A program made the position numbers and the translations under genes. Under the pieces are notes generated by a model that saw only the letters and a list, made by a program, of their open reading frames with translations, searched no databases and was not told the DNA's origin. Below, one piece after another: positions 337 to 63,450 of a DNA stretch of 64,000 nucleotides. Within the stretch, counting starts at the first letter, position 1, and the number at the start of each line of letters is the position of its first letter. The stretch is taken from IMG/VR virus record IMGVR_UViG_3300013131_000040. One strand, given 5' to 3'. This DNA comes from an uncultured virus (IMG/VR IMGVR_UViG_3300013131_000040) (taxonomy: Duplodnaviria; Heunggongvirae; Uroviricota; Caudoviricetes).

Positions 337-633
337 GTGAAGCTAGATGAGGCCGAGATCCTAATGGCAATTGGGAGTGGCGATCCGTTCGCTGCTGCTG
401 CCATAGTAGCACGTCAAACCGGAACAGAACTAGACCTTAGTCAGTTTCGCTATATTGACGGCACCCACGATTACAAGCATGATCCCGAAATCGTGATCGC
501 GTTAATAGGTGGCGGGTGCATTGCCTGGTCTCCAGCTTATAGCTTTATCTACGTTGGTGATTTTTTCAAGATCAGTAATCCTGGTACTATAACTATGCGG
601 TATGGCCGCAAAAGAAAGAAGATCTCCAAATGA
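337..633 (+). CDS. MKL-family small protein (helical subfamily A)
   Basis: GTG AAG CTA start overlapping the upstream TAG; KLDEAEILMAIGSGDPFAAAAIVARQ. Confidence 0.65.
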   Translation: MKLDEAEILMAIGSGDPFAAAAIVARQTGTELDLSQFRYIDGTHDYKHDPEIVIALIGGGCIAWSPAYSFIYVGDFFKISNPGTITMRYGRKRKKISK

Positions 634-806
634 GCAAGAATGTAACGGTCGTACTTGACTTCCGCCTTGATGATGGCCTTTCTCCTGAGGAGGTCCGGGC
701 TATTCGTGATGCCATGGTAGATTCTTTCCGCGAGCAGGCCGAGATCGAACTGACATCCATGCAATCCCCTATTGTGGATTGCACAGTGACGGCCACCCTC
801 AACTGA
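630..806 (+). CDS. Small hypothetical protein (58 aa, below the ORF-track cut-off)
   Basis: ATGA overlap with the upstream stop; MSKNVTVVLDFRLDDG...; fills the gap exactly. Confidence 0.55.
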   Translation: MSKNVTVVLDFRLDDGLSPEEVRAIRDAMVDSFREQAEIELTSMQSPIVDCTVTATLN

Positions 807-1095
807 GGTAAGTGTATGTCTTACATGTCTACAAAGTTCTGCGAAACATGCGATGCCGATTATGATTGGGCTGCTCCCGAGTGCCACGGCTGCGTTACGC
901 GGCGAGCGTGGGAGGCAGAGAGCGCGCGTGTAGCTGCGCTGCTGAAAGCAGCGCGGAGTGCCCTCTATGACCTGGGCATTCTTCCTAGCTATCTAGATGA
1001 CCCTGCATTTCCGTGGCCGAACGCAGGACTAAGGCTGCTGGCTCGATCACATCAGCGGGCCCATGCCCAGCTGGCAGAAGCCCTGGCTCTATTCG

Positions 1096-1389
1096 ATGAA
1101 GCTGGATGACTATCTAATGAGGCAAGCTTTTCGCAACAGAGACTGGCCTGCTGCGATAGCTAATCTGGCTCAACATTACAGTCTGCCCATTGATGACCCA
1201 GACAAACTGATAATCGGCAAAGACTATTCTGTATCTGACGTGTCCGGCGAAGAAGAATCTATTTCTATTTGCTGGAATGGGCAGTATGCTGTCTGGTCAT
1301 CTACAGAGAGTTACTTGGGATGCGTAGTACTTAGAAGGCCTATCCTGCCACCAGCTATTAGAATCTACTGCGATAGCATCGGCAAATGA
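1096..1389 (+). CDS. MKL-family small protein (subfamily A)
   Basis: MKLDDYLMRQAFRNRDWPAAIANLAQHY. Confidence 0.7.
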   Translation: MKLDDYLMRQAFRNRDWPAAIANLAQHYSLPIDDPDKLIIGKDYSVSDVSGEEESISICWNGQYAVWSSTESYLGCVVLRRPILPPAIRIYCDSIGK

Positions 1390-1631
1390 TATGCAGCCAT
1401 TTTGCTAAAGCCATGTCTATTGAGGAGCATATGACAACGTCACATAGTAGTGATGCCACCCAGGCAACCATCCGAAAGCTTGAAAAACAGATTGATGATC
1501 TCAAGGAAGTAGTGATGCAGATAGCATGGGAGCTTGAGATGCGAAACAAGCACCGATATGTCACAAAGAAGGAAGAGGAGTTCCTACAGAAGCGCAACAT
1601 CAAAAAGGTCTAGCCTCGAGGACCAGGCGAC

Positions 1632-1940
1632 ATGAAGCTGTCACACTATGAAATAGCCGAGGCCTGTGCTGCAAGCAACTACGCGGCTGCTGCCGATCTG
1701 ATACGTCGCAACTCTACGGGTGAGATTGCCAGTCACAATGTTGCAGCGTTTCCAATTTTTACTTTCAGTATAATAAGCAATGTTGCGCTTGTTCAGATTG
1801 AGATTCAAGTGTGGATAGGGACCTGCTGCTGGTACTGGAATGATCTAAGTGGCTATGGTGAGTACGATCTTTCGGATTACGACTTTTACCCCGTCAACCC
1901 ATCAGAAAGAATTTGCATAAAGAAATTCGCTAGGCAATAG
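1632..1940 (+). CDS. MKL-family small protein (subfamily A)
   Basis: MKLSHYEIAEACAASNYAAAADLIRR. Confidence 0.7.
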   Translation: MKLSHYEIAEACAASNYAAAADLIRRNSTGEIASHNVAAFPIFTFSIISNVALVQIEIQVWIGTCCWYWNDLSGYGEYDLSDYDFYPVNPSERICIKKFARQ

Positions 1941-3330: not shown

Positions 3331-3410
3331 TACAATCGGCGCCAAGACTCAGCTCTTGGCGCCGTTCCTGGTTGGACCAGGCGTTTTGAAACCCAAGCCC
3401 AAGGATATGT

Positions 3411-4907: not shown

Positions 4908-5201
4908 ATGAAGCTAGACAGCATAGTTTTCTACAAGCTAAAGAGCCTCTCATGGGTTTCACCGTGGACCGAGCACGCCTATATTGTTACTGGTGACGGG
5001 TTGGAGACTACTGCTAGCTTATTTTACGCAAAGAAGCTGCATACCAAGGATAAAGTCTACGGCCAGTATAGTCTAGGCCTGCAATACACTCACGAGCTAT
5101 ACATAATGTCTCCAGGAATATTTTTAAAGTTTCCTGATGACGAAGTCGAGGATGTTATATCTGCTCTGGCGAGGGCGGGCTATTTTCGCGAAGATGGGTA
5201 A
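4908..5201 (+). CDS. MKL-family small protein
   Basis: MKLDSIVFYKLKS. Confidence 0.6.
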   Translation: MKLDSIVFYKLKSLSWVSPWTEHAYIVTGDGLETTASLFYAKKLHTKDKVYGQYSLGLQYTHELYIMSPGIFLKFPDDEVEDVISALARAGYFREDG

Positions 5202-5204: not shown

Positions 5205-5543
5205 ATGAAGCTAGCTGACCAGATCTTTACCGTCCTCGCACCGGCAGAATGGCACACTGCCATTGATCTACCATTCCCGCCTGCCTGGTACGCCATTGCC
5301 GGCCAGCTAGCCTCCAGCGATATAGAAGAGATCGTGTGGCAACGCAATTACATAATCCTGGCCGAATACGTATCAGGTCGTAGCGCCGAGCGACTTGCGG
5401 CATATGGCAACGAAGGTGAGCCTAACCAGTTTTCAATAACATGCGGCGCGCACATAAATGTTGCCGCGCTGCTGGCACCAGTACGAGATAAAGCAAGAGT
5501 GTGGCACTGTGGATGCTTCGCCCGCCTGTCCTATAACCCCTGA
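5205..5543 (+). CDS. MKL-family small protein
   Basis: MKLADQIFTVL; starts 3 nt after the upstream stop. Confidence 0.6.
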   Translation: MKLADQIFTVLAPAEWHTAIDLPFPPAWYAIAGQLASSDIEEIVWQRNYIILAEYVSGRSAERLAAYGNEGEPNQFSITCGAHINVAALLAPVRDKARVWHCGCFARLSYNP

Positions 5544-7173: not shown

Positions 7174-7193
7174 TGTAAGCTACTAGCATCGCT

Positions 7194-7535
7194 ATGAAAC
7201 TAGAAACCGCTGCGATGCTAGTAGCTATTGAAGATGGGGAATGGATGACTGCGGCGGGCATAATAGCTCGCCACTTTAATGTAGAGGTAAGCCTGAATGA
7301 ACTTCAGGTTTACAGCCTGACGAGTCTCCAGATTCCCTTTGCGCGGGCAGCGGACTCCCTGCTACTATATCCGATCTACGGTTATAGGTTTGAGTGGCAC
7401 AGCGATACGGGCTTTATAGCATCACTATCCGCTCAGAGGTACTACTCTGATGGAAAGACTAACCCTCGCGCTCAACTGCGTGATCGTCCAGTTCTAGAAG
7501 TTTTCCGGCAGCAAACCCTAACCACAGGAGCCTGA
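7194..7535 (+). CDS. MKL-family small protein (subfamily A)
   Basis: MKLETAAMLVAIEDGEWMTAAGIIARHF. Confidence 0.7.
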   Translation: MKLETAAMLVAIEDGEWMTAAGIIARHFNVEVSLNELQVYSLTSLQIPFARAADSLLLYPIYGYRFEWHSDTGFIASLSAQRYYSDGKTNPRAQLRDRPVLEVFRQQTLTTGA

Positions 7536-7538
7536 TAA

Positions 7539-8037: not shown

Positions 8038-8040
8038 GAT

Positions 8041-8304
8041 ATGAAGCTGGCGTCTGTTGCTATCTCAGAAGCGTTCATGGCGGCAGACTACGAGCTAGCC
8101 GTGACTGCCCTTGCGGATCATTATGGACTTGTCCTTCCTGATGGGTACGACCTTGAGGTTATGCTGGATCGCGATCATCATCCCGAAGTAGTAATTGAAA
8201 CCGAATGCATGGTGTATGGCTGGGATAAAATAATTGGTCTTTATTCCGGCAGCATAGTGCCGCGTTACAAGCTACTTGTGACTGTATTTGATTGCAATCG
8301 TTGA
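8041..8304 (+). CDS. MKL-family small protein (subfamily A)
   Basis: MKLASVAISEAFMAADYELAVTALADHYG. Confidence 0.7.
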   Translation: MKLASVAISEAFMAADYELAVTALADHYGLVLPDGYDLEVMLDRDHHPEVVIETECMVYGWDKIIGLYSGSIVPRYKLLVTVFDCNR

Positions 8305-8310
8305 GGCATT

Positions 8311-8643
8311 ATGAAGCTGCGACAATGGGAGATTGAGCGGCATATAAGTGAGCTGCTTGGCAGAGAGCCCGAGGTTTTCTGGGCAGGGCGCACCAGGGAT
8401 CATGCCCTGCTACTCTGGCCCCACAATGATGGATTTGCCTTTTTGCAGCGTGGCAATGCTGTAGCAGTCTCTGTGCACGGCAGCGTGTCTGGATACTTCG
8501 AGCCATGTCTAACTAAGATTAGCGACGATAGTATAACTGCGGCTGTAAATGTTATTGTTCGCAGCTCCGGCTTGCCATGGAAGCAGGCATCGGCCTGCGA
8601 AGAAATCGCAGATATGTTCAGGGCGGCCAATGAAGCTAGCTAG
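8311..8643 (+). CDS. MKL-family small protein (paralogue of 10562..10867)
   Basis: MKLRQWEIERHISELLG...YFEPCLTKI. Confidence 0.7.
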   Translation: MKLRQWEIERHISELLGREPEVFWAGRTRDHALLLWPHNDGFAFLQRGNAVAVSVHGSVSGYFEPCLTKISDDSITAAVNVIVRSSGLPWKQASACEEIADMFRAANEAS

Positions 8644-8908
8644 CATTGCGATTAAGTTTGCCCTTGGGGAAAAGGACTGGGGAGCAGCTGTTCGGCTGCT
8701 AGCATCCTTATTCCCACTCGAGGGTATTGAGGAAGCCATTAGCATTCATGGCATATCTACGTCAGTAATGCCTGCCTGGGATATGGAAGAGGTGCAGATC
8801 CGCTGGCAATACAATATCTACTACTGGAGGCGAGGGCAGGTGATCTCCGAGCGGTACCCAGTAAACTACCCTACTCCGATGGCTATTGTCTACTGCAAAG
8901 GAATTTGA
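8630..8908 (+). CDS. MKL-family small protein (subfamily A)
   Basis: MKLASIAIKFALGEKDWGAAVRLLASLF. Confidence 0.7.
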   Translation: MKLASIAIKFALGEKDWGAAVRLLASLFPLEGIEEAISIHGISTSVMPAWDMEEVQIRWQYNIYYWRRGQVISERYPVNYPTPMAIVYCKGI

Positions 8909-8909
8909 T

Positions 8910-9197
8910 TTGAAGCTCATAGATTACGAGCTTATATTTATGATCGAGCGCGGCGACTGGGATGGTCTGGCTGCTGCCATCGCTAGGCATCACGGCTGCT
9001 CCCTTCAGGCAAAAGCAGAGGTCGCACTCCTAGACAGCGTAGTGGATGACAGCTATGTTTCTCTGCGTATTTGCGACAAGCGCTATACATGGAGCCAGGA
9101 CACTGGCTTCTATTCCTATCGTTATTCAGCCGGGCTAGGCGACGTAGTGCCGCAACTAACCGTTATAAGAAAGCGGGATTATCAGCATGAAAATTAA
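8910..9197 (+). CDS. MKL-family small protein (subfamily A), TTG start
   Basis: TTG AAG CTC 1 nt after the upstream TGA; KLIDYELIFMIERGDWDGLAAAIARHHG. Confidence 0.65.
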   Translation: MKLIDYELIFMIERGDWDGLAAAIARHHGCSLQAKAEVALLDSVVDDSYVSLRICDKRYTWSQDTGFYSYRYSAGLGDVVPQLTVIRKRDYQHEN

Positions 9198-9705: not shown

Positions 9706-9718
9706 GTGTTGCGCAGTC

Positions 9719-10003
9719 ATGAAGCTAGACAACTATGCGATGCGCCTTGCCTTTGCTGAGCGGGATCTGCCTGCTATTAAGGCTGGCGTCGAGCAACACT
9801 TTAACATAAAGCTCCCTAATGTCGAGGCAGAAGTAAGGGATTCATATCCTTATATTGACCAGCTTAGGGTTGACGCAGGGTATAAGTCATATGTGTGGGA
9901 TTCGCGTAATGGCTTTTCTTGCTTTGAAATAATAACGCCTTACACAAAACCTAGCATCACTGTGTGGTGGGCCATGGCAATTAGAGCGCGGGCTCCGGTC
10001 TAA
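9719..10003 (+). CDS. MKL-family small protein (subfamily A)
   Basis: MKLDNYAMRLAFAERDLPAIKAGVEQHF; its stop codon is the TAA of repeat copy 4. Confidence 0.7.
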   Translation: MKLDNYAMRLAFAERDLPAIKAGVEQHFNIKLPNVEAEVRDSYPYIDQLRVDAGYKSYVWDSRNGFSCFEIITPYTKPSITVWWAMAIRARAPV

Positions 10004-10039: not shown

Positions 10040-10297
10040 GTGAAGCTAAATCACTATCTAATGCTAGAGGCTTTCCAGCAGGCCGACACCGACAAAGCCG
10101 TGCAGATCTTTCAAGAGCACTTCGGCCTGAGCATTGTAGACTTGTCAGTAGAAGTTCATCCTACTCATCTTCATGGAGATGCGGTCCACCTTTGGGATGG
10201 GCCAGGATACTATAAATGGACCGCCGAAAGCGGCTTCGGCAAATCTTTTGCCAAGTTTAATCGTCGCACATCTTGCGCCATTACTCTAAGGGTATAG
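10040..10297 (+). CDS. MKL-family small protein (subfamily A)
   Basis: GTG start; KLNHYLMLEAFQQADTDKAVQIFQEHFG. Confidence 0.7.
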   Translation: MKLNHYLMLEAFQQADTDKAVQIFQEHFGLSIVDLSVEVHPTHLHGDAVHLWDGPGYYKWTAESGFGKSFAKFNRRTSCAITLRV

Positions 10298-10298
10298 C

Positions 10299-10565
10299 AT
10301 GAAGCTGGATCACTACCAGATGCTAGATGCATTCCAGCGCCGCGACGTGGACGAGATATACAGGTTGTTTAAGGCGCAGTTCGGGATTGACTTTGACACA
10401 GCATCTGCTGAAGTCGTAGTAGACGATCCTTATGCTGGCAATGAGATCGTTATGTACCGATCCAAAGAGTACTACAGTTGGAGCGACGGCGAAGGTTTTT
10501 ATTCCAATACTTTTATAGACACCATTCACCCGGCACTACGGGTAGTGTTTGCGATGAAGCAATGA
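10299..10565 (+). CDS. MKL-family small protein (subfamily A)
   Basis: MKLDHYQMLDAFQRRDVDEIYRLFKAQFG; tandem paralogue of 10040. Confidence 0.7.
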   Translation: MKLDHYQMLDAFQRRDVDEIYRLFKAQFGIDFDTASAEVVVDDPYAGNEIVMYRSKEYYSWSDGEGFYSNTFIDTIHPALRVVFAMKQ

Positions 10566-10867
10566 AGATTAGAGAGTGGGAAATTCGCGAACATCTACAG
10601 GAAGTAGTTGGCGAATACACGGATGCTTTCACCGGAATCTATGATGATAGCACGATGTATGCTTGGGTTGTTAAGCCTGGCTTTTGTATATACCAGTTCG
10701 GTGAGCAGATAAGTATAGGTGGACAAGTCGTCACCGGCACCTACTTCTCTCCAAATCTTGCCAAGATTACAAAAAGCTCAATAGAGCTGGCATACCGTAT
10801 GCTAGAGGCTTCAGGGGATGATGAGGGCGTGACGGATCCTTATGTAGTCCAAAGGCTTTTTACCTAG
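10562..10867 (+). CDS. MKI variant, paralogue of 8311..8643
   Basis: MKIREWEIREHLQEVVG...YFSPNLAKI. Confidence 0.65.
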   Translation: MKIREWEIREHLQEVVGEYTDAFTGIYDDSTMYAWVVKPGFCIYQFGEQISIGGQVVTGTYFSPNLAKITKSSIELAYRMLEASGDDEGVTDPYVVQRLFT

Positions 10868-12100: not shown

Positions 12101-12364
12101 ATGAAGCTGTTGAAGTGGGAAATGGCAGAAGCAATCGCTTGTCGCCACTGGTATGCAGCGGCGGCCATAGCTGCGCGTGAGTTCGGTCTAGCACCGCCAG
12201 CGTCCCTGGTAGTAGCCGACAACGTACTGCACGGTCGGCTGGCGCCAGCTGCCATTAGGATATTTGTCAATGGTATGTGCTACATGATGGCGCTGCCTGA
12301 CTGCAATTCATATATTAGCTCAACTGTAAGTCCAAATAATACTGCAACAATTACTTCATGGTAG
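12101..12364 (+). CDS. MKL-family small protein (subfamily A)
   Basis: MKLLKWEMAEAIACRHWYAAAAIAAREFG. Confidence 0.7.
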   Translation: MKLLKWEMAEAIACRHWYAAAAIAAREFGLAPPASLVVADNVLHGRLAPAAIRIFVNGMCYMMALPDCNSYISSTVSPNNTATITSW

Positions 12365-12698: not shown

Positions 12699-12932
12699 AT
12701 GAAGCTTATCAAGGCCTATGAATTCCGTGACCGATGGGGAACGTGCGTCCTGCGACTGCCCTATCCTCAAGATATGGCTATTCTCGGGATAGTGCTGGCG
12801 CAGCACAACTACAGGTTCCGAAAAAATCGGGAGCCTGTCAGCATTTATGCCATCAGCGTGCTAGGCGATTCAGAGCAGATAGATGTGCCTGACGATCCTG
12901 AGAACGACTATACTTTTGGCAACAAACAGTAA
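12699..12932 (+). CDS. MKL-family small protein
   Basis: TAAGGA RBS; MKLIKAYEFRD. Confidence 0.55.
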   Translation: MKLIKAYEFRDRWGTCVLRLPYPQDMAILGIVLAQHNYRFRKNREPVSIYAISVLGDSEQIDVPDDPENDYTFGNKQ

Positions 12933-12950: not shown

Positions 12951-13295
12951 ATGAAGTTAGAAAATGCGGAGATATTACTTCGCTATCCTATTCCTGCTGG
13001 TGCTGGATTCAGTGCTTACCGCAACGGCAGTCGCATAGTGGTATCTTTTAATATACCTGGCAGCGGAAAGCTCAGGCTAGCCCTTGATCCTGACAGCCTA
13101 GACATTTGTAGCTGGGTTTCTTCACTAGGCGGCAATTACTTATTCAGCCCAGGATCTATTCCGGTTGACGATGCTACAATTGATCTTCTTACTCGAGGCG
13201 TCATGCCAGGGTCGTCTGATCCCAGTATGACTGGTGCTTTGCTAAAAGAAATTCGATTACTGCAAACGGACAAAAATGAAGACACTGATTCTTGA
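12951..13295 (+). CDS. MKL-family small protein
   Basis: ATG AAG TTA; MKLENAEILLRY. Confidence 0.6.
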   Translation: MKLENAEILLRYPIPAGAGFSAYRNGSRIVVSFNIPGSGKLRLALDPDSLDICSWVSSLGGNYLFSPGSIPVDDATIDLLTRGVMPGSSDPSMTGALLKEIRLLQTDKNEDTDS

Positions 13296-14898: not shown

Positions 14899-15258
14899 AT
14901 GAAGCTAGACGAAGAATGTATTCGTCAAATGTACCGTGGCTCATCAGTTGATCTGTCACGAGCGGCAGCCGATGTGCTTGCCCTGTGCGACGAAGTGGCA
15001 CGCCTGAAATCCTGCAACAAGGAAATCTTAGACGATCTACTCCGCTGTCAGAAGCGGCTGGATGCGGCAAGCAGTTATGCCGAAGGCTGCGCCAAGCAGG
15101 CCGGAGACCTTGCAGAAGGCGTACTTAATGCACTAGGTATCAAGTGGAGCACTGTCTGCCCTGATGATGCAACTATTATCCAGCATGTGCGCGATCTGCG
15201 CGCCAAGTGCGAACAGCTAGAAATTCAATTCGAATATCTTGAAGGACCAGGAGAATAG
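14899..15258 (+). CDS. MKL-start coiled-coil protein
   Basis: MKLDEECIRQMY; AAGGA RBS. Confidence 0.6.
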   Translation: MKLDEECIRQMYRGSSVDLSRAAADVLALCDEVARLKSCNKEILDDLLRCQKRLDAASSYAEGCAKQAGDLAEGVLNALGIKWSTVCPDDATIIQHVRDLRAKCEQLEIQFEYLEGPGE

Positions 15259-18339: not shown

Positions 18340-18879
18340 ATGTCGCCTGGGCTGGAAGAAAAACTATATCGTGATCACCCGCGCATCTTTCGCAGGGGTA
18401 ATGACTTTATTGGCATCAGCTGCGGCGATGGCTGGTACAACATCATTGACGTTCTCTGTACCAATATTCAACATCATATCAGTGGCTCGCGAAGCATCCG
18501 TGCTCGAGACCTGCGGTATAATCGCGCCTTGCGAGCAGGCATCTCCGGTAATAAACGGCCGCTAGAAAAGCATTTTAATTGGGGCGTGCCGACTTTCAAG
18601 GTCAGCCCTAAAGTAGCCGACCGCGTAGATGAAGTAATTGCCAAGGCTGCTTTTCTTACGCCCCATGAGCCTATATATCAGGTACAGTGTACCCAGGTAA
18701 AAGAAAAGTTCGGCGTACTGTGCTTTTACTATGTAGGAGGCGACAGATATATCGACGGTCTTGTGCGCATGGCAGAGGGCGTCTCCCGCCATGTCTGTGA
18801 AAAGTGTGGCGGGCGAGCGGACGCCGAAGTCAATTCTGGATGGATCAAATCGCTTTGCGTCGGCTGTGCAGGCAAATGA
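18340..18879 (+). CDS. Conserved phage protein with C-terminal zinc ribbon
   Basis: CGDGW, QVKEKFG.L.FY, CEKCG...LCVGC. Confidence 0.7.
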   Translation: MSPGLEEKLYRDHPRIFRRGNDFIGISCGDGWYNIIDVLCTNIQHHISGSRSIRARDLRYNRALRAGISGNKRPLEKHFNWGVPTFKVSPKVADRVDEVIAKAAFLTPHEPIYQVQCTQVKEKFGVLCFYYVGGDRYIDGLVRMAEGVSRHVCEKCGGRADAEVNSGWIKSLCVGCAGK

Positions 18880-19262
18880 AATTAGCAAATGTCTGGTGGG
18901 CCGGTAGCGATGAGTATATCCGCGCATCAATTGCAGATTATGGTTTGCCGGTTCCTAAGGAAATATGCGGGGTGCCATTTAACATGCTGCTGCAACTCGC
19001 TCGCGAGGACAGCCTGCTGATAGAGTGGGTGTCGCGGCGCGCCTTCATGATATACAGGCTTGGTGTTTCAGAAGATGGTATTTCTGCTATGGGTGGCGAT
19101 ACCGAGTGGGATGCACCTAGTTTGTTAGGTGCCATTTATCTTAATTTTAATATGCCTGCGAGCGCAGGGGCTCTAGAGGCAATAGCTGCGGCAGAGGCCG
19201 CTGGTTTTGCAAGAAGCTCGCTCTCAAGCGGCTATTGTGTATACAAGAATCACTTAACCTAG
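18876..19262 (+). CDS. MKL-family small protein
   Basis: ATG AAA TTA in an ATGA overlap; MKLANVWW. Confidence 0.6.
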   Translation: MKLANVWWAGSDEYIRASIADYGLPVPKEICGVPFNMLLQLAREDSLLIEWVSRRAFMIYRLGVSEDGISAMGGDTEWDAPSLLGAIYLNFNMPASAGALEAIAAAEAAGFARSSLSSGYCVYKNHLT

Positions 19263-20347: not shown

Positions 20348-20608
20348 ATGAAACTCCATGACTGGGCTTTGCAATCTGCTGCCGCCTCGCGCGATTGGCG
20401 CGAGGTAGTACGAATAGTTTCGCGAGAAATTGGGATTGAGCCACCTGAGAGGATAACTGCTAATCCAGAGATAAGTAGCGATTGGTTGTGCATCTCAATA
20501 GTCAAAGGTCATGAGTCATGGAATTATTGGTGCGATGGAGTATGGAACCATCGCTCCCACCCACCAGCCGGGTATCCTCCTGGTAACTACGCATTTGTTG
20601 TGAGGTAG
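20348..20608 (+). CDS. MKL-family small protein (subfamily A)
   Basis: MKLHDWALQSAAASRDWREVVRIVSREIG. Confidence 0.7.
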   Translation: MKLHDWALQSAAASRDWREVVRIVSREIGIEPPERITANPEISSDWLCISIVKGHESWNYWCDGVWNHRSHPPAGYPPGNYAFVVR

Positions 20609-21759: not shown

Positions 21760-22131
21760 ATGAAACTTGCATTCTTGGAATTCCTAGCAAGCGGGCCTCC
21801 TGATGCGGTATGGAACCCGGATTGGGGAAGGCTGTACTCTGCCAAAGAGGGCGCATATCTAGTTGTTTACAAAGAGCGCGGCACTATACAGTCTGCTCAC
21901 TGGCGAACTAATACTGGTTTTATAACGAATACGCATGGGCCTGCTGCTGCGTGGTTCTGGCCTAACGGAACGGTTCGCGCTCTTGAGTACTACGTGAATG
22001 GCAAGTGCCACCGCACCGATGGGCCTGCAATCATTCATTTTGATGAGCTAGGGAACATAACAAGATCACAGTTCATTGTGAATCCTGCTCTATCTCCTAA
22101 CAAAGATGGCGGCTCGTCATCTACGAGCTAG
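21760..22131 (+). CDS. MKL-start protein carrying HxxDGPA repeats
   Basis: MKLAFLEFL; NTHGPA and YYVNGKCHRTDGPA. Confidence 0.65.
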   Translation: MKLAFLEFLASGPPDAVWNPDWGRLYSAKEGAYLVVYKERGTIQSAHWRTNTGFITNTHGPAAAWFWPNGTVRALEYYVNGKCHRTDGPAIIHFDELGNITRSQFIVNPALSPNKDGGSSSTS

Positions 22132-25628: not shown

Positions 25629-25841
25629 ATGAAGCTTGCCTCTTTAGAGATAATGTTCTGCAAAGATGCATATGATCTGCTCCTGTGGTTTAAGAAAGTA
25701 AGAAATCTAAATATTCCATCCAGAGAAGATTTTCAGGTTCTCATGGACACGGAAGAAGTCCAAACACTAGGTGTCTGGTTTGATCATGTTGGGCTCGTGT
25801 CGATATTAAAGATCAACCGAGGTGGGCTTAGCGCATCCTAG
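25629..25841 (+). CDS. MKL-family small protein
   Basis: MKLASLEIMF. Confidence 0.55.
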   Translation: MKLASLEIMFCKDAYDLLLWFKKVRNLNIPSREDFQVLMDTEEVQTLGVWFDHVGLVSILKINRGGLSAS

Positions 25842-26521: not shown

Positions 26522-26968
26522 ATGAAGCTTCTCGATATCGCCCTTAACTACGCATATACTTGCGCGGAAGCAGAAGCGATCCTGGCAGCTTCTGCTCCCG
26601 AAGTAATTCCTTTTCTGCACAAAAGAGATCTGAGCATCCTAACACGAAAGATTGTATCTTACAATATCCACGGGCTAAATATACACAGTGTCCACGTTCC
26701 ACGGGCCGGCGTCGCACGCATATGGCCTCGCAAGAATGAGTTCTTGTACTCTGGTAAGATTTTTTCTTTTCATATCGTAGTCAGTGATCCAAAAGCAGAA
26801 AAACAAAAAGCAGTTCCAAGAAACATATCGTTGGCTTATGTTCTTGATGTGCTCAGCAAGCAGCTGATGACGCAGCTAGACGTGCAAGAGTATTATCGGA
26901 AACAGCACGAAGCCTATATGCTTCGACTATCTGCTTACGAAGCAAATGCTAAACAAGGCAGCAAATGA
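26522..26968 (+). CDS. MKL-family small protein
   Basis: MKLLDIALNYA. Confidence 0.6.
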   Translation: MKLLDIALNYAYTCAEAEAILAASAPEVIPFLHKRDLSILTRKIVSYNIHGLNIHSVHVPRAGVARIWPRKNEFLYSGKIFSFHIVVSDPKAEKQKAVPRNISLAYVLDVLSKQLMTQLDVQEYYRKQHEAYMLRLSAYEANAKQGSK

Positions 26969-27276
26969 AACTTGATGCCAGCGTAGATCTTTGGTTCGCA
27001 TGGCAAGAGGGTAATGCCGAAGCCCTACGAGACAGGGTAGCAACTCTTATTGGAAGAGACTATGGTGCTCGATTGCCTTCTGCTCCTTGGAAATTTTATA
27101 CAGAGAAAAATGAATCTGTGATAATTAAAACAATCATGCTTTGCAATGAGTGGTCGATATACATTCCCGTAAACTGGACAGATAGCCTGCACTACCGTTT
27201 CACTCGGAGCGGCGGACCTCCTCGACTTGAAAACTCCAGCTTTTCCTATAGAAACTATATCATAGTAACTGATTAG
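26965..27276 (+). CDS. MKL-family small protein
   Basis: ATGA overlap; MKLDASVDLWFAWQEGNAEALRDRVATLIG. Confidence 0.6.
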   Translation: MKLDASVDLWFAWQEGNAEALRDRVATLIGRDYGARLPSAPWKFYTEKNESVIIKTIMLCNEWSIYIPVNWTDSLHYRFTRSGGPPRLENSSFSYRNYIIVTD

Positions 27277-30087: not shown

Positions 30088-30385
30088 ATGAAGCTAGATT
30101 GGTTCGTCGCCCGATCCGCTTTCAGGGAAAATGATTCAGAAGCAATCCTCGGACTCGTAGAGAGCCAGTTTAACATAGAGATAGACAGGCAATACGAAAT
30201 CAAGCTACTGCCGGATGGATGGATGGGAAGAGGTTGCTATCTGTATAGGCTATAGCCTTACCACATACAAAATATCACATGACGGCTGGGTTACTTGGCA
30301 GTGGAGGCTAGCAAATACTTCAAAAGAGCTGGCTCACCATACTCTTTATAAAAGACAGATCATAATTTATGGACCTAAGAAATGA
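30088..30385 (+). pseudogene. MKL-family (subfamily A) gene frameshifted at a (GGAT)3 repeat
   Basis: MKLDWFVARSAFRENDSEAILGLVESQF stops at 30255; removing one GGAT restores an ORF ending in an ATGA overlap at 30382-30385. Confidence 0.65.
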
Positions 30386-30735: not shown

Positions 30736-31131
30736 TTGAAGCTAATAGATGCCGCTTTGCTCTATCACCCTGAGGCTGCTGCCGCACTAGACAGCGGACT
30801 GGTAATACCGAAAGAGGTTTGTCAGGTCTGGAACAGCTTGTTAGCCAGTGATGGCTCGATATGTGTGGGCTGGGGTAACTTTGACGATGCCGGAAAGCTG
30901 CAAGCTACTTATGCAGGAGCTTTTATATTCAATTCCGGCAGTGAAGATAGTTCAACTAACTGTCTGTATATGAAGAGTATTTCTTTTGAATCTGACAAGT
31001 TGCCGGAGTGCTTCTGGTTATCAGATCCATCTACCAGAGTAAGCGCCAGCATGACGAACAGCCTGCGACAGGCAAGTCTTTTCTCGTGCACGATGCTGTC
31101 CTGCAAGTACTTAGTTTGGAAGATTCGCTAA
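30736..31131 (+). CDS. MKL-family protein (SICVGW subfamily), TTG start
   Basis: AAGGAG RBS then TTG AAG CTA; SICVGWGNFDDAGK. Confidence 0.65.
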   Translation: MKLIDAALLYHPEAAAALDSGLVIPKEVCQVWNSLLASDGSICVGWGNFDDAGKLQATYAGAFIFNSGSEDSSTNCLYMKSISFESDKLPECFWLSDPSTRVSASMTNSLRQASLFSCTMLSCKYLVWKIR

Positions 31132-33037: not shown

Positions 33038-33490
33038 ATGAAGCTTGAATACTGGAACAATAAGTTCTTTACGCTAGAGCTTAATCGCAACTACATGAGT
33101 GAGGCGCACAAGTGGCCACTACTGGATAGCGTACTTGACGCTGCTGACAGGGCCATCCCGCTGACCTCCGAGTCAAAAACAGGCAGAAGTATCTGTGTCG
33201 GCTGGGCCTCTATTGGGTCGAACGGTAAACCAGATATGTGGCTTTATCACCATGCTCTCTGTGTGCCAAGAATGGAGGAGAGAAGCAAGCGGAGTTTCGG
33301 CTTCACGCTTATCCAGAGAAAAGATCAATGGCATCCTATTGTATCTAGCAAAGAGAAGCGCCTCGCGCCAGTGTTTAATGTCGGTGCTCTACCCGAAAGC
33401 GCCGCCTTCGTAAAAATCCTCAATGATCACGGCATCTTAGCTCACATGGGAATGCCAATTCTTTCCGTTCCTGAGCTAATTAAAAAGTAA
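33038..33490 (+). CDS. MKL-family protein (SICVGW subfamily)
   Basis: MKLEYWNN; SICVGWASIGSNGKP. Confidence 0.65.
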   Translation: MKLEYWNNKFFTLELNRNYMSEAHKWPLLDSVLDAADRAIPLTSESKTGRSICVGWASIGSNGKPDMWLYHHALCVPRMEERSKRSFGFTLIQRKDQWHPIVSSKEKRLAPVFNVGALPESAAFVKILNDHGILAHMGMPILSVPELIKK

Positions 33491-34246: not shown

Positions 34247-34758
34247 AAACATTCCTTTTTTTAGACATGGAGTTTAGCGGGCTAGATCCGCGCGTTCATA
34301 GGCCGTTAGAGATTGCTGCGATTGCAGCAGATCCACGTCTAAAGCAACTGGGCAAATATCACGCAGCTTTTTACTGGGATGAAATCGAGTTTAGTGACTG
34401 GAGTGAGCGAGTCCATGCCAACAGCGGTCTAATGGACCTGATTGTCGATGGCAAAGAGGCGGAGCAAGTTGACGCTGAATTATGCTCCTTTGTCCGCTCT
34501 TTCCCCGGTGATATTATCCTTGCAGGCCAATCTGTGTACGTAGATCGAGAGTGGATTGCCTGCTACCTACCGCATTTTGCCTCAAAGCTCAACCACAGGA
34601 TGTTTGACCTGACTACCATAGACATGGTACTTGAAGACCTTGGGTCTTCAATAAGGCACAGGGCAGGCACACACCGGGCTCCAGACGATGCAAAGGCCGC
34701 ACTAGAAGCTGCACGGCACTACATGAAAACGCTATCATACAACCCGTCGCTGCTATGA
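34243..34758 (+). CDS. orn: Oligoribonuclease (DEDDh)
   Basis: LDMEFSGLD, PLEIA, LAG.SV..DR, HRA.DD. Confidence 0.8.
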   Translation: MKTFLFLDMEFSGLDPRVHRPLEIAAIAADPRLKQLGKYHAAFYWDEIEFSDWSERVHANSGLMDLIVDGKEAEQVDAELCSFVRSFPGDIILAGQSVYVDREWIACYLPHFASKLNHRMFDLTTIDMVLEDLGSSIRHRAGTHRAPDDAKAALEAARHYMKTLSYNPSLL

Positions 34759-35189
34759 AGTTATTGCTCGCTGCCCTAATAGCATGTGACATAGAGGATC
34801 TGATGTCTGCGTCGGATAGGCAGGATCTAGATTCCACCTGGAGAGTTGCGCTTGCAAAACTAAGGGAAGGCAACCGGAAGCGAATAGGTGTTAGATTCCG
34901 CCCCCGCTACGGGGATACCGACTGGTGTATAGGAAATGGAAGTCTGGTAGAGAGGATGTACAAAACAGTACAGCTGTCTTGTCATGTAAGCAAGGAAGAG
35001 TTGTTCTTAGTAAAGCTTAGAGGTAGCCTCGAGCCACTAGAAAAACATCCCTTGTTATGTAAGCTAGACGAAACTATGTGGGAGTTTTCTAGGTCTCAAG
35101 TAGCCCCTTGGGGTGGATTTGGTTTTGAGAGCACCTATTATGTAGGCGAAAAAAATCCATGGCCTGGCCAGATCGGAGAAGTCATTTGA
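34755..35189 (+). CDS. MKL-family small protein
   Basis: ATGA overlap with orn; ATG AAG TTA. Confidence 0.55.
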   Translation: MKLLLAALIACDIEDLMSASDRQDLDSTWRVALAKLREGNRKRIGVRFRPRYGDTDWCIGNGSLVERMYKTVQLSCHVSKEELFLVKLRGSLEPLEKHPLLCKLDETMWEFSRSQVAPWGGFGFESTYYVGEKNPWPGQIGEVI

Positions 35190-38196: not shown

Positions 38197-38652
38197 ATGA
38201 AGCTTGAAAAAGCAAGAACCATTCTAGATGTTCAGGACTTGACCGTATTTAACAGGCAGAAATTAAAGAGGTATGCAGATACATTCAACTGCTGTCTAGA
38301 CTGGATCTGTATAAATCCACCCGGGACATGTGCAGTAGATCTGCGCTATAGCGAAGGCAGTGCCTCAGACAAAGTAGACGTAAGATTTTTTACGCTCAAT
38401 TCCAAGGGACAATGTCCGCTGGTACCCAGCTACGCCCAGACCTACAAGCTGTCTGCAAACCACCGCGGCGAAGATATTTATTTTGCGCCTGGTCGTATGT
38501 GGGTAGAAGGGGGCACGGATTGGCATCTAAGCATTGACTGGCAAGCTCTCCGTCCCGGAAGCCCGCCCATTGTTGCTTTGGAGCAGGTAGTCAATCTAGG
38601 CGAATTTGGACTTGAGTTAACCGACAAGTTTTATATTACGGAGCGGAAATGA
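38197..38652 (+). CDS. MKL-family small protein
   Basis: MKLEKARTILD; 11-nt overlap with the upstream gene. Confidence 0.6.
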   Translation: MKLEKARTILDVQDLTVFNRQKLKRYADTFNCCLDWICINPPGTCAVDLRYSEGSASDKVDVRFFTLNSKGQCPLVPSYAQTYKLSANHRGEDIYFAPGRMWVEGGTDWHLSIDWQALRPGSPPIVALEQVVNLGEFGLELTDKFYITERK

Positions 38653-49308: not shown

Positions 49309-49638
49309 ATGAAGCTCTGGTTAGCAGAGCTGATACTGTCTGTATCTGAAGAGTACGGTATATCACCGACATCATGCGGCAGCTCTCCAGTTGGCGAGTC
49401 AGTTATTCAGTGGCCTGCTGGCCCCGACCGGCTGGCCGCTGCCTACTATCCAGATTTTAATCTCCTGAGAAAATGGAATAAGGATCCAAGCGATTATGGC
49501 TATGTGCAGCACTTGTTCTATTCCGATGGTCGGGTAGGGCAAATAACAACAGTTTCCGCCGGTTGGGTAAATGAAGAATGGTTTGACCCCGCCGGTAATT
49601 CAATCACTTACGAACGATTCGTTTCGATTTATTTTTGA
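49309..49638 (+). CDS. MKL-family small protein
   Basis: MKLWLAELILS; starts 1 nt after the upstream stop. Confidence 0.6.
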   Translation: MKLWLAELILSVSEEYGISPTSCGSSPVGESVIQWPAGPDRLAAAYYPDFNLLRKWNKDPSDYGYVQHLFYSDGRVGQITTVSAGWVNEEWFDPAGNSITYERFVSIYF

Positions 49639-53098: not shown

Positions 53099-53425
53099 AT
53101 GAAACTACATGAAATGCACCTGATAAACAGCCTACTTGAAAATCAGGACATGGAAAATCATATTAGTTCTGAAAAGCTAAATGGCCAGCGGGTCCATGTG
53201 CTGTCAGGGCCAGGCAAGATGATTATCATCACAAAGCATCCACACCATTTTGATATATCTATGAAGTTCGATGGGCGACCAGTAAGAGCTGAACTAGATC
53301 TAAATCTAAATATCGTTTCTATTGACTCTGGCAGGTGGTCTCTTAGTGATGAAGATGTGATAAATAAAAGGAATTTCGAGGCAAGGTTTGCAACAATTCT
53401 GCCCAAAGGACTAGGATCAGCCTGA
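53099..53425 (+). CDS. MKL-family small protein
   Basis: ATG AAA CTA directly after TGA; MKLHEMHLINS. Confidence 0.6.
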   Translation: MKLHEMHLINSLLENQDMENHISSEKLNGQRVHVLSGPGKMIIITKHPHHFDISMKFDGRPVRAELDLNLNIVSIDSGRWSLSDEDVINKRNFEARFATILPKGLGSA

Positions 53426-55924: not shown

Positions 55925-56854
55925 ATGCTCGGAGTATGCTGTCAGTGGCTTGAAGAAAAGAAGACTAAAACTGGCTCAAAGTTCGTTAACAAAATTGGCG
56001 AGCGAGCTTTGCAGCTAGGGCGATTCCAGGCCGGAGAGTATAGCGCCGAGCATATTCGCAGTGTTTGGCTTGGTAATATCGCTGGCATTTCTGCAATTAC
56101 GCGCGACTTGCGGGATTCAGGAGTGGGGCTGTTTCGAGTAGGCAGCACGCTCCTGCCCCTGTTCGATAAGGTTGCAGAAGATGCGCGCTACAGTGAACTG
56201 GTAGGCGAAGCAATCACCGCTCTGCAATCAGCCCAATCTGCTTTCGCAGGCCTGCGCCTAACTATGCATCCCGGCCAGTTTGTAGTGCTTAATTCCGATT
56301 CTGATACCGTAGTACAAAATTCTATCAGGGAACTGACTTATCACGCCATGGTTATGGACAATCTTGGCGCTGCCCTTAGTACCAATTTTGCAATAAATAT
56401 TCACGGCGGCAAACGCGGCTCTCCAGATCGCCTACTTCGTGGCATTGACGCTCTGCCACACAATGTGCGATCACGCTTGACCCTCGAAAATGATGAGAAC
56501 TGCTGGTCAGTAGCAGACCTGATGCCAATTAGCGCAGCATCTGGGGTACCCATCCTTTTTGATTCTCATCATCATGTATTCAATGACGGCGGTATGAGTG
56601 GCGAGGAGGCAATGCTTGCAGCGGCCTCTACCTGGCCGGCTGGCATACTTCCGCTACAACATCTTAGCAACACAGAGCCAGGCCTTGAAGGCGGCAACTT
56701 TACCGAGCGCCGAGCACATAGTTGGGCGATCCATACGATCCCCGATTACCAGAAGGCTTATTATGCCGCTGGAAAGTGCGACATCGAAATGGAATGCAAA
56801 GGCAAAAATCTCGGATTTATCCCCCATCTTGATAAGCTAAGTATTCGTATATGA
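55925..56854 (+). CDS. uvsE: UV damage endonuclease
   Basis: LFRV...LP, RLTMHPGQFVVLNS, INIHGG, RLTLENDE, FDSHHH, HLS, H...I, MECKGK. Confidence 0.92.
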   Translation: MLGVCCQWLEEKKTKTGSKFVNKIGERALQLGRFQAGEYSAEHIRSVWLGNIAGISAITRDLRDSGVGLFRVGSTLLPLFDKVAEDARYSELVGEAITALQSAQSAFAGLRLTMHPGQFVVLNSDSDTVVQNSIRELTYHAMVMDNLGAALSTNFAINIHGGKRGSPDRLLRGIDALPHNVRSRLTLENDENCWSVADLMPISAASGVPILFDSHHHVFNDGGMSGEEAMLAAASTWPAGILPLQHLSNTEPGLEGGNFTERRAHSWAIHTIPDYQKAYYAAGKCDIEMECKGKNLGFIPHLDKLSIRI

Positions 56855-57246
56855 AGCTGGCAGACCTGCTGTTCAGGGATCTTAAGCTATTTATCGACAC
56901 ATTTACTGCCCCAGAACACGCAGATGAGCTGTACGCGGCAGTAAGCGGTGCTCAGATGAATAGGTGGGGAGTGGCTGAGCCCGGAGAGGGCGGCAGGATC
57001 GCCATCGGGGTAGATAAAGATGGCACAATAGTCACTCCCAACTTCATCAAGTCAGAGCCATCTACCTGGGTAGTATTTTTCTCTTTTTTTAGCAACGGCG
57101 ATAACCCAGACTTGGCGAAAGTTACCCTGTCTTTTCCGGCGTTTTACTGGGCCTCGAACTACGAAGGAACAGTTAATTCTGGCATAGAGGTACCGCTACG
57201 GTTAGATGACGGTAGGCTAGAACTGATCAAGGCTGCCGGCAAATAG
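56851..57246 (+). CDS. MKL-family small protein
   Basis: ATGA overlap with uvsE; MKLADLLFRD. Confidence 0.6.
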   Translation: MKLADLLFRDLKLFIDTFTAPEHADELYAAVSGAQMNRWGVAEPGEGGRIAIGVDKDGTIVTPNFIKSEPSTWVVFFSFFSNGDNPDLAKVTLSFPAFYWASNYEGTVNSGIEVPLRLDDGRLELIKAAGK

Positions 57247-61066: not shown

Positions 61067-61716
61067 CAGGCATTCAAAATACTTTAGGATAGGTAGGACG
61101 ATGAAGATTGTAGATTGGTTCATGGACAAGGACACCGAGACGATTGTATCTGCTCTTAAAGACTTCCCTGTTCATGAGAATATTAACGAGATTGTCGAGT
61201 ACGCCAAAGAGAATCGTATCCTGATCGAAGTGCGCACGAAGGACGATCTTATTGCGCTGCGCCTAGCGCCCGAGCTTGTTCGTCCTGCCTGGTTGAAGGA
61301 AGATATGTTCAAGTTCTCTTTCAAAGGATGTAGGATCATTGCCCACACCCGCGGTGGCGAACAGGCCCTTAAATTCCGTGACTGGGGCTTTTCCCAGAAG
61401 GGTTCTGCGTTTACGTTCACCAAGAAATAAAGCGGCGCTCGATTAATATTTGGCTATTTTTTAGAGGCTCTAATGCGAAAAACACTGCGTCCTATCGATC
61501 CCTCCGAACTGCAAGTAGGCAGGCGCATTAGAATAAAGTGCCCAAGAGTTAACGAAATATTCCGCACCGATTGCGGCCATATAGATGGAGAAGTCGTAGA
61601 GCTTTTCGATGGCGGCGGCAGCATGGGCATGCAAGTAGACATTCGTAATAAAACTCAGTGGTGGCGTTGGATACCGTCAATTGACGGTGGCACCTGCGAA
61701 GAGGAAGAGTAGCAGA

Positions 61717-61750
61717 ACGGGCCGGGGCTAAGGCCGGCCCCCGCCGATCC
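61717..61750 (+). promoter_or_regulatory. Dispersed 34-bp element copy 15 (CTAAG variant)
   Basis: CTAAG 61728-61732, GCCGG, GATCC 61746-61750. Confidence 0.55.
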
Positions 61751-62557
61751 GGTGGAGGCGTAAGCCCGCAGCAAACCACGACTGAATGAAAAGGATTGTA
61801 GATATGAACCACGGTGAGAAGTCAGCAAACGAAGCTCTGTCAGGTGTTATGGCCGAACTCTCAGTAAAGGACGGCCAGCTTCGCGCAGCATTCGTCATTC
61901 GCGATAAGCAGAATCCATACGCTGAACCAACAACCCTCCGGGTAATGTCACTGGCTGATGTCAAATCATTTGTTGACGCAGTTCCAGATCAGGTACACTA
62001 CCTGGCAATTTCAAAAGATGAGTCGCAGAAGGTACTTAAGGTAAGCCTCAGCTCGCGCTCCCAGAAGTACAACGTACACTGTGGTCAAACAAACCACATG
62101 GGATACCTTTTTGATCCAGCGCTCTTTGCTCGCCTAGAGGAAGAAGTCGGCCCAGAGCTGATGCCAGACTTCATCAGCTTTCTGTCTGAGTGACTGCCTC
62201 CTGCGCCTTTGAAGGCGGAGGCGAATACAGAGTAAACATCAGAATAACGAGTGGGTGGAAGAATGATCAGTAGCGCAGAACAACAATTTGTTATCAAGTT
62301 GCAGGACCAGGAGGAGCTAGAGCGTCGCTATGTGCTTGATGTACTAGCTCACAAGCGCATGGAGTCTGTTGAAAAGAACGGCCCAGTCCTGGCTCCAGAC
62401 AAGGTTCTAGAGGCTGTTTCTATCCTCGGTGAGGATTGTCGTCTAGAATTCCGTGATGGTATGTGGAGCATTGATCTGGGCGGTGCTGATACAAAGAAGA
62501 AGGTAAAGATCAAAGCCGAGCAGCAGCATATTGCTCTGGCAAAGGCTATGATCATCT

Positions 62558-63034
62558 ATGTCCGCAAGTACCTTTGATTTTCCAGATCACTGCGGTCCAC
62601 AGCTAGTTCCTGCCTCGGCATGGAACTCAAATCTTCGCGCAGTACTGTCTGCTGCCCGCTGGCGGGATTTTAGGCAGTCAGTATTTGCAAAGCACGGGCA
62701 TGCCTGTGCCTTTTGCGGAGCACGCCCTAAGTCGCTCGATTGCCATGAGATATGGAACTACTCGATAGAGAGCGGCGAGACGACTGGCAGGCAAAGCTTG
62801 GTAAAAGTTTTACCACTGTGCAAGAGCTGTCACATGGTTTGCCACATCGGCTTTTGGTCGCTGCAAGGCAAGTTTGAAGTAGCTCTGGCGCACATGATGC
62901 GTGTGCGTAAGATAGGTCGCACTACTGCTCTTGCAGAGATAACAGCGGCCAATGCAGTATTCGAGCATCTAAGTCGATTCGACTGGATACTCGACATCGA
63001 GTCTGCAAAAGTATATATAGAGCGTGTAGAATGA
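62558..63034 (+). CDS. HNH-like zinc-binding endonuclease
   Basis: CAFCG, LDCHEIW, LCKSCHMVCH. Confidence 0.7.
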   Translation: MSASTFDFPDHCGPQLVPASAWNSNLRAVLSAARWRDFRQSVFAKHGHACAFCGARPKSLDCHEIWNYSIESGETTGRQSLVKVLPLCKSCHMVCHIGFWSLQGKFEVALAHMMRVRKIGRTTALAEITAANAVFEHLSRFDWILDIESAKVYIERVE

Positions 63035-63450
63035 AGCTAGATGATTACCTGCTGAGGCATGATCCTCTGCTAGTGCTATCTCAATCGGGATGCAGCACAG
63101 AGATGCTAGAGCTTGCAAAAGTCGGATTGTCTAGCCGCCGAAGATTTCCTAAATTCCAGATGAGCATAGGCTACGGCTTCTCGCCGTCAGCCAGTCATTG
63201 CAAACACATATATACCTGGTTCCTAGATCCCAAAGGCAGGCCTAAACATGTTATACGACAATCTCGTACGGGCAGTCAGTACTATCTTGGCCTGTGGTTT
63301 TGCAGAAGTTTAATTGACCCTAGCGATCAGTATTTATGCCAAGCGAAAACTATGCCCGGCGTATCGCTCAGGGGAGAGTGGATTTGGCTTTCAGATAAAT
63401 CAAGTGACCTGAACAAAGGAGTAATGAATGCATTCTTCGGAAACAGATGA
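63031..63450 (+). CDS. MKL-family small protein
   Basis: ATGA overlap; MKLDDYLLRHD. Confidence 0.6.
   Translation: MKLDDYLLRHDPLLVLSQSGCSTEMLELAKVGLSSRRRFPKFQMSIGYGFSPSASHCKHIYTWFLDPKGRPKHVIRQSRTGSQYYLGLWFCRSLIDPSDQYLCQAKTMPGVSLRGEWIWLSDKSSDLNKGVMNAFFGNR

Follow-up and report, generated by a model that had tools for sequence, protein, structure and literature searches.

In bacteriophage T4, the capsid-targeting sequence (CTS) marks internal proteins (Ips) for loading into the head and for injection. This leader has also served for loading foreign proteins, and to our knowledge no other case has been documented in which small, unrelated phage proteins share just an N-terminal leader of about 10 residues. 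IpII and IpIII of T4 begin MKTYQEFIAE, and IpI begins MKTFKEFTST. In the T-even phages the leader is reportedly found on small, otherwise unrelated, fast-evolving and non-essential proteins encoded in plastic regions of the genome (PMC3012670, PMC12373910). Here we describe a comparable pattern in 64,000 nt of DNA from an uncultured virus of the Caudoviricetes (IMG/VR record IMGVR_UViG_3300013131_000040), a stretch called the window throughout, in which 34 small open reading frames (ORFs) begin Met-Lys-Leu (MKL) and another begins Met-Lys-Ile (MKI). The excess of MKL starts is real, strongly non-random and far above chance. MKL together with a proline-poor, amphipathic stretch of about 8-11 residues forms a selected, protein-level N-terminal leader, and this leader marks one class of phage genes which are small (55-185 aa), fast-evolving, tightly packed and accessory. 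Our literature search found no paper on MKL or a similar leader in giant phages.

An earlier, sequence-only reading of the window had cited the T4 leader as a precedent, and it is indeed the closest known analogue: in both cases a leader of about 10 residues starting Met-Lys occupies the extreme N-terminus of small, fast-evolving proteins that are unrelated to each other. In the largest group of MKL proteins, named family A below, residues 8-11 often read [I/M]-x-E-A, in register with I-A-E-A of T4. The two systems differ in scale: T4 has 3 such proteins and the T-evens together about 10, whereas here there are 34 in 64 kb and at least 69 per genome. They also differ in that no conserved Glu cleavage motif exists outside family A, that the MKL phage has its head genes at a distance from the MKL genes and a head module resembling that of phage G, with a lambda gpA-like terminase, and that its leader is modelled as part of the fold.

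Each of the 34 positions given for MKL proteins reads a start codon, an AAR codon and a Leu codon followed by an open frame (55-151 aa), and position 10562 opens with MKI as claimed. The start codon is ATG in 29, GTG in 3 and TTG in 2; Lys is encoded by AAG (28) or AAA (6), and Leu by CTA (13), CTG (7), CTT (7), TTA (4) or CTC (3). MKL is the first start codon past the upstream in-frame stop in 25 of the 34, and two further candidates of 46 aa each, which had not been claimed, lie at 25383 and 39926. Gene calling was repeated blindly, with a codon-usage caller ignorant of the motif; among its 127 genes in the window 25 start MKL, reproducing 25 of the 34, and the next tripeptide, MKI, opens 5. 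The caller misses or starts elsewhere the ORFs at 8910, 12699, 12951, 20348, 25629, 30088, 31305, 34755 and 63031, of which 8910, 20348, 25629, 30088, 31305 and 63031 are supported by family alignments or orthologues despite the caller. The least certain members are six ORFs vouched for by their open frame, with no homologue in the related genome introduced below. Three of them are reproduced by the blind caller: the singletons 4908..5201 (97 aa) and 5205..5543 (112 aa, with Pro13 after the leader), and 18876..19262 (128 aa), which overlaps its upstream gene by ATGA and has a weak BLAST link to 30736. For the other three, all singletons, the caller prefers other starts: GTG at 12684 for 12699..12932 (77 aa), 13038 for 12951..13295 (114 aa) and 35076 for 34755..35189 (144 aa, ATGA overlap). 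These ORFs, like all those listed below, are on the plus strand.

The frequency of MKL does not match the background, 25 starts being observed against 0.6 expected. The composition null (fK x fL) is 0.0047, KL follows only 1 of 327 internal Met residues in the window, and 1000 rounds of shuffling within proteins gave a mean of 0.63 MKL starts with a maximum of 5. A complete relative, IMGVR_UViG_3300035212_003113 (G001; 371,675 bp), shows collinearity with the window at about 38-117 kb. Judged by capsid protein, its nearest isolate is Bacillus phage G, with 45% identity in that protein. With the same caller, MKL opens 69 of 521 genes in G001 (proteins of 65-185 aa) and 3 of 670 in phage G (Fisher p = 3e-18 against the window). 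A crude count of first-start ORFs gave 12 of 1971 in 38 unrelated phage loci and 25 of 284 in the window. It had also been claimed that none of the recognisable enzymes carries the tripeptide and that the MKL proteins mostly lack a hydrophobic signal region. MKL is in fact absent from all Pfam-recognisable enzymes of the window, the M16 peptidase nevertheless starting MKI, and none of the 34 proteins has a hydrophobic run of 10 or more within its first 30 residues, so that a Sec or lipoprotein signal peptide is rejected. A special charge class is rejected as well, the median pI of the MKL proteins (5.9) being like that of other proteins. In a Pfam search with all 35 proteins (34 MKL and the MKI protein at 10562), nothing rose above any cut-off.

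Lys2 and Leu3 are held at the protein level and kept by selection. The view that the constraint acts on the protein, and not on a fixed DNA site, is borne out by synonymous variation, by periodic conservation and by orthologues with differing codons. Codon choice for Lys2 and Leu3 matches the overall usage of the window, TTA included, with a mild excess of A-ending Leu codons (p = 0.013). An information-content profile was made from 103 MKL genes of the window and G001. Upstream of the ATG it contains no conserved base beyond a weak Shine-Dalgarno signal common to other genes; information rises at the ATG and is codon-periodic from there, with free wobble bases (third codon base, 0.26 bit). 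Residues after MKL have preferences too: D/E/A at position 4, Y/W/F/A at 6, E/A at 7 and I/L/M/F at 8. A promoter or operator common to the MKL genes was considered and rejected, no motif being present upstream in these 103 genes.

Conservation of K2 and L3 in related phages is also observed, with 19 of 21 window-G001 orthologue pairs keeping MKL. Among these reciprocal best hits, 15 G001 partners are called with MKL, 4 have MKL inside a longer call and 2 read MQKL and MQCL, the partners of 14899..15258 (119 aa) and 38197..38652 (151 aa), respectively. Between the two members of the 15 clean pairs, different Leu codons are used in 9 cases, different Lys codons in 3 and different start codons in 6. 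The 21 MKL pairs have a median identity of 34%, compared with 56% in 77 other pairs. The orthologue keeps MKL for 25629..25841 (70 aa, small family c4), 30736..31131 (TTG start, 131 aa, family c12), 31305..31643 (GTG start, 112 aa, family c13), 31815..32135 (106 aa, family c5) and 33038..33490 (150 aa, family c6). MKL lies 7 residues inside the called start in the orthologue of 26522..26968 (148 aa), 2 residues inside in that of 63031..63450 (139 aa, ATGA overlap), and likewise inside the called start in that of 26965..27276 (103 aa, ATGA overlap). In three orthologue trios that span two further relatives, MKL is retained with Leu codons that vary. MKL is present in the orthologues from two relatives for 49309..49638 (109 aa, family c15; Leu codons CTC, CTA and CTG) and for 53099..53425 (108 aa), and those of 56851..57246 (131 aa, family c17, ATGA overlap) keep it with CTG or TTA.

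The MKL proteins had been described as mutually divergent, which is only partly right and is wrong for 38% of the list, since BLAST joins 13 of the 34 into family A, all alignments beginning at residue 1. Family A comprises the ORFs at 337..633 (GTG start, 98 aa), 1096..1389 (97 aa), 1632..1940 (102 aa), 7194..7535 (113 aa), 8041..8304 (87 aa), 8630..8908 (92 aa), 8910..9197 (TTG start, 95 aa), 9719..10003 (94 aa), 10040..10297 (GTG start, 85 aa), 10299..10565 (88 aa, the sequence that was modelled), 12101..12364 (87 aa), 20348..20608 (86 aa) and 30088..30255 (55 aa, a short member with the N-terminal half only). Its profile has 42 six-frame matches in G001, all on the plus strand between 3.8 and 72 kb, and, in a library of 1.84 billion proteins clustered at 50% identity, it matches 285 cluster representatives. 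When 132 small cluster representatives were read, 115 started MKL, 6 MKI and 4 L/VKL, while 4 had MKL just inside a longer call, 2 were short calls and 1 read MRL. Among 26 metagenome homologues, 23 start MKL, 2 have L-K-L inside a longer call and 1 is a short call. Within the window, BLAST links the remaining 21 proteins in two pairs, 8311/10562 and 18876/30736, the rest being singletons; with G001 added, the proteins outside family A form at least 12 further small families, plus singletons. The first pair makes up family C, with 8311..8643 (110 aa, modelled), whose metagenome orthologue group is MKL, and the MKI protein 10562..10867 (101 aa), whose group is mostly MKI.

That MKL is common to proteins of unrelated folds is supported by several comparisons. 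In hhalign, family A against 23 other families or singletons reached 22% at best, and at most 0.7% after the first 10 residues had been trimmed. When a profile was built from residues 1-32 of family A, its matches at the N-terminus of other MKL proteins were confined to the first 5-11 profile positions, and without MKL it matched none of these proteins credibly. AlphaFold2 models of family A (52-sequence alignment; pLDDT 89, pTM 0.80) have a helix at 2-13, a helix at 17-28 and five strands, while those of family C (17 sequences; pLDDT 88.6, pTM 0.81) have a helix at 5-16, four to five strands and two C-terminal helices, so that the two families, as modelled, differ in topology. Family B was found in G001, is built of HR-x-DGPA repeats and groups with the ORFs at 21760 and 16078 of the window; the four G001 members that were tested score above the Pfam threshold for DUF6745. 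The MKL member in the window, 21760..22131 (123 aa), is itself without a Pfam match. A single paralogous superfamily is consequently rejected as a general explanation: it is true for the 13 proteins of family A only, the rest having no detectable homology past the leader, and the order of secondary structures differs between A and C. Searches with the family A model against the PDB and BFVD (Foldseek) gave best E-values of 0.29 and 0.13, and VIA-align against 48,161 chains gave Z = 3.1; the family C model reached E = 0.5 and Z = 4.9 at best, with small alpha/beta folds, among them type III secretion chaperone-like ones, and no match stands out. In the ESM Atlas the top score, 0.80, was at noise level.

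As regards the extent of the shared unit, Pro occurs at residues 4-11 in 6 of 85 MKL proteins outside family A and in 91 of 340 other small proteins (p = 4e-5), with a peak at residues 12-13. This depletion indicates that the shared unit is MKL plus a short proline-free, probably helical stretch. A leader of the proposed kind is thus shared across unrelated families, and the proposal does not hold in the same way for the 13 proteins that are plain family A paralogues, where the leader is the modelled first helix of the fold. G001 also holds proteins in which only 24-42 N-terminal positions of the family A profile are joined to other C-termini.

Some observations on ORFs outside the MKL list touch these families. 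The ORF at 16078-16368 was called as MAMKMY..., and its alignment to the G001 repeat proteins begins at residue 3; its true start may be the ATG at 16084, which would give M-K-M, a Leu-to-Met variant of the leader that the earlier reading did not list. ORF 54316, which is related to the family B repeats, is without the leader. In addition, eleven large proteins (444-3212 aa) match only positions 32-88 of the family A profile. Four of these large matches were scanned (P0051, P0122, P0136 and P0176); three carry PKD/Ig-like repeats and P0176 has mixed weak matches. Such matches are probably chance similarity around a Y-x-W...G motif, summed over repeats, although a distant link of family A to a beta-sandwich repeat is conceivable from these alignments.

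The MKL genes are unevenly distributed in the genome. Of the 69 in G001, 52 lie within 0-100 kb and 10 within 320-340 kb, and only 4 fall in 120-320 kb, where the replication, packaging, head and tail genes are located. They are also more tightly packed than other small genes, with a median gap of 0 vs 22 nt and ATGA overlaps in 29 of 96 vs 25 of 231, and a Shine-Dalgarno-like core is absent from 41% of them. A link to genome ends was considered and rejected, the apparent terminal repeat of G001 being an assembly overlap of 127 bp. Contigs of related strains break exactly at 10559-10567, on the ATGAAG start of ORF 10562, and continue into other MKL genes; past 12928 another strain likewise continues into a different MKL start. 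Since the contigs break at the MK start and run into other MKL genes, whole cassettes are swapped at the MK boundary. In tandem arrays of small ORFans, strain-level replacement of cassettes and lineage-specific expansion of families, the region resembles hyperplastic cassette regions known from large phages. For T4-type phages, modular shuffling reportedly concerns regulatory DNA cassettes, to judge from the title of a paper on the subject (PMC2839356); the arrangement here differs in that no conserved DNA motif flanks the cassettes and the shared item is a peptide.

Another group of small genes in G001 has a different organisation. Within 350-368 kb, about 40 copies of a bipartite promoter-like motif, GGTCCTAAA(A/G)AC followed after about 12 nt by GATCCTGT(T/A)AG, precede small non-MKL genes, often after a GC-rich hairpin, and this promoter-dense block has next to no MKL genes (a single one in the 340-360 kb bin). 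One degenerate copy of the motif, GGGCCTAAAGCC...CGATCCTGT, is present in the window at about 26071-26100, as is a half-site (14767-14800) before a terminator-like hairpin at 14789.

What the leader does can be approached through its likeness to the T4 leader. On this analogy, MKL may be a common N-terminal handle, closest to the capsid-targeting leader, the reading that we rank first, though short of an even chance. One partner would read the leader, so that a large, changeable set of accessory proteins could be sorted, loaded or turned over in a timed manner. Capsid loading would be only the best-documented precedent for this, candidate readers also being the ClpS, trigger-factor-like, HSP90-like and M16 peptidase proteins of the phage. 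A bolder form, which we consider rather doubtful, is a phage-wide address code by which at least 70 unrelated accessory proteins would be routed to one reader, either for loading into a very large capsid and injection with the DNA, without clipping of the T4 type, or for hand-over to the proteostasis set of the phage (trigger-factor-like protein, ClpS, M16 peptidase and HSP90-like protein). Such a code would let the phage add, swap and drop effector cassettes while one delivery route stays. Several findings weigh against a common handle. No reader has been found, and we know of no precedent for a phage genome with at least 69 kinds of cargo protein. No T4-type head was found either, the capsid protein being like that of phage G and the terminase of the lambda gpA type; in G001 no protein of the head module starts MKL, and the MKL genes lie far from the head genes. 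Among family A proteins, 14 of 43 have the T4-type cleavage motif, [LIMV]-x-E with Glu at residues 8-12, compared with 36 of 528 other proteins and 149 of 2358 background windows; with 5 of 81, the MKL and MKI proteins outside family A are at the background of 6-7%. Residues 1-10 are modelled within or before the first helix, with a block pLDDT of 91 in family A and 88 in family C, and a detachable tag would not be expected to be modelled as a confident part of the fold. Finally, Lys2 is raised throughout the genome and 30% of the MKL genes have ATGA overlaps, so part of the signal is explained without any reader.

Indeed, perhaps no reader exists at all. Lys2 could be favoured for expression, through its AAR codon and the ATGA overlap, with Leu3 as the hydrophobic anchor of the N-terminal helix, and the start could have spread by duplication followed by extreme divergence or 3' replacement; this we regard as a tentative but realistic possibility, and as about level with a common handle. 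It fits well with family A, whose 13 plain paralogues in the window belong with 42 matches in G001 and 285 representative clusters, with the models of families A and C, in which the leader helix packs into the fold, and with the G001 proteins that carry just 24-42 N-terminal family A positions on other C-termini. The close coupling of the MKL genes, by their gaps, their ATGA overlaps and the 41% without a Shine-Dalgarno-like motif, points the same way, as does the exchange of cassettes between strains exactly at the MK start (10559-10567). Lys at residue 2 is found in 39% of window genes, 25% of G001 genes and 17% of phage G genes and is raised in every gene class. Residue 3 tolerates Ile: after MK in G001, Leu occurs 69 times and Ile 16 times, and one orthologue group is mostly MKI. 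Yet K2 is invariant, beyond most core residues, across at least 130 clusters at below 50% identity, which the fold explains poorly, and phage G, under the same general pressures, has 3 MKL among 111 MK starts. Were expression the cause, the preference for AAG (82%) over the less structured AAA would be hard to account for, as would the near-absence of MKL from the structural and replication core of G001 (4 of 69 in 120-320 kb) and from the promoter-dense small genes at 350-368 kb. The wobble positions, too, bear no trace of recent sharing of 5' ends at the DNA level. A signal residing in the nucleic acid itself, with ATGAAGCT as a DNA or mRNA site (a translational operator, or a processing or recombination site) and the residues as a by-product, would account for the distribution of this octamer in the window, with 22 plus-strand copies (21 at gene starts) and none on the minus strand, 1.0 being expected, and for the strain-level junctions on the ATGAAG start. 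It conflicts with tolerated variation that is exactly synonymous (AAA/AAG; CTN/TTA) and leaves the third base at 0.26 bit, with downstream conservation that is codon-periodic at residues 4, 6, 7 and 8, and with the lack of anything conserved 5' of the ATG save the weak Shine-Dalgarno signal common to other genes. Moreover, MKF (UUY) is not among the eight commonest third-residue choices after MK, yet the similar Ile is second, and ATGAAGCT is unenriched away from gene starts. We therefore consider a nucleic-acid signal extremely improbable, to the point where it can practically be dismissed.

A turnover signal is the weaker alternative on the protein side. The leader would here be read by host Clp, Lon or FtsH, either with Leu3 exposed by trimming for the phage ClpS or by direct ClpX recognition, for the timed clearance of early effectors; we judge this improbable. 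Such signals are, like the MKL leader, very short and located at the extreme N-terminus, and this phage does encode a ClpS (24150-24455; PF02617, E = 4e-29), which keeps the N-D-D, Met and His of the E. coli protein and hence the canonical pocket residues. An M16 peptidase with an intact HxxEH motif (5557-6672) adjoins two MKL genes. Furthermore, tblastn against phage G, where MKL starts are not in excess, gave no match to ClpS, the M16 peptidase or the trigger-factor-like and HSP90-like proteins, though this co-occurrence is one genome comparison. The difference lies in the terminus that is offered. All these proteins begin Met-Lys, whereas ClpS needs a free N-terminal Leu, Phe, Tyr or Trp, so a processing step must be assumed. 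Methionine aminopeptidase does not remove Met before Lys; Lys2 thus keeps the Met in place, and no N-terminal Leu is offered as encoded. Docking to the phage ClpS is accordingly not favoured, its pocket being the canonical one for N-terminal Leu, Phe, Tyr or Trp, none of which is present at an intact Met-Lys start. The suggested resemblance to the Met-basic-hydrophobic motif of ClpX fails too. This class has hydrophobic residues at positions 3-5, and acidic or polar residues there weaken ClpS binding; in the window, position 4 is D/A/E in 20 of the 34 proteins and position 5 is D/S/E in 16, with the same trend in 124 MKL/MKI proteins. Residues 4-5 being mostly polar or acidic, the motif so defined is not matched.

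A second phage offers a useful comparison for the capsid-loading form of a common handle. L055 and L056 are IMG/VR fragments of an uncultured, AT-rich phage (36% GC) with a T4-type portal and terminase. In L056, nine mutually unrelated proteins of 67-267 aa encoded within 7.8 kb (7175-14954) begin MKL-x-[D/E]-[V/I]. Their cluster is directly upstream of the T4-type terminase and portal, and among the other approximately 54 tiled ORFs of this 40-kb fragment none starts in this way. Several of the nine are very Lys-rich and one has a Zeta_toxin/AAA_33 kinase-like match, the MKL proteins of L056 differing from those of the window phage in that they include larger, enzyme-like ones. BLASTP of the tiled L056 ORFs against the proteins of the window phage found no similarity, and only an IscA-like gene is common to both. 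Five or six of the leaders have [L/I/V]-x-E at residues 7-10, which makes a true CTS plausible, and to judge from these sequences the MKL leader of L056 is probably the capsid-targeting leader of that phage.

If the leader of the window phage is an address, three residues alone would reveal the whole changeable effector repertoire of a giant-phage lineage. This repertoire would make up about 13-25% of the genes and, in metagenomes from lakes and other waters, hundreds of clusters at 50% identity. The delivery or control route would be one undescribed outside T4-type phages, and it would offer a handle for loading foreign proteins. If there is no reader, the MKL genes would be a clean natural example of strongly fixed first two post-start codons, with new genes built onto an old start. 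Either way, two protein families, A (at least 285 clusters, a confident model and no known fold) and C, are new.

The window itself has about 51% GC and nearly all of its genes on the plus strand. Megablast of 12 kb of it against the phage collection gave no match, and one family A protein used as query against viral contigs found no confirmed relative. A metagenome scan matched only a 152,038-bp contig with a 100% identical gene, which is probably the window's own, and a 1-kb fragment. In G001, the terminase matches lambda GpA_ATPase, Pfam gives no match for the portal, and a trypsin-like protease gene lies at 200.7 kb; PF03420 (T4 gp21) has no match in G001 and none in any control genome either.

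Besides the ClpS and M16 peptidase genes, Pfam recognises in the window two MoxR-type ATPases, each adjoining a DUF2201 metallopeptidase/VWA protein (2164-4577 and 43865-46478), a trigger-factor-like protein (40961-42304, Trigger_N only) and an HSP90-like ATPase of 710 aa (49651-51783), and an FtsH-M41-like fragment (39706-40413) remains below the Pfam cut-off. Such a proteostasis set is unusual for a phage. The MoxR/DUF2201 pair does match phage G by tblastn. An IscA-like protein, UvdE and both type II topoisomerase subunits are recognised as well. Lastly, a cyclic-phosphate-processing receiver domain (cREC_REC, 13276-13650), a SpoU methylase (16382-16912), an RNA ligase with an OB domain (17211-18338) and a 2'-5' RNA ligase/LigT-like protein (53459-53998), all assigned by Pfam, suggest an RNA repair or modification set.

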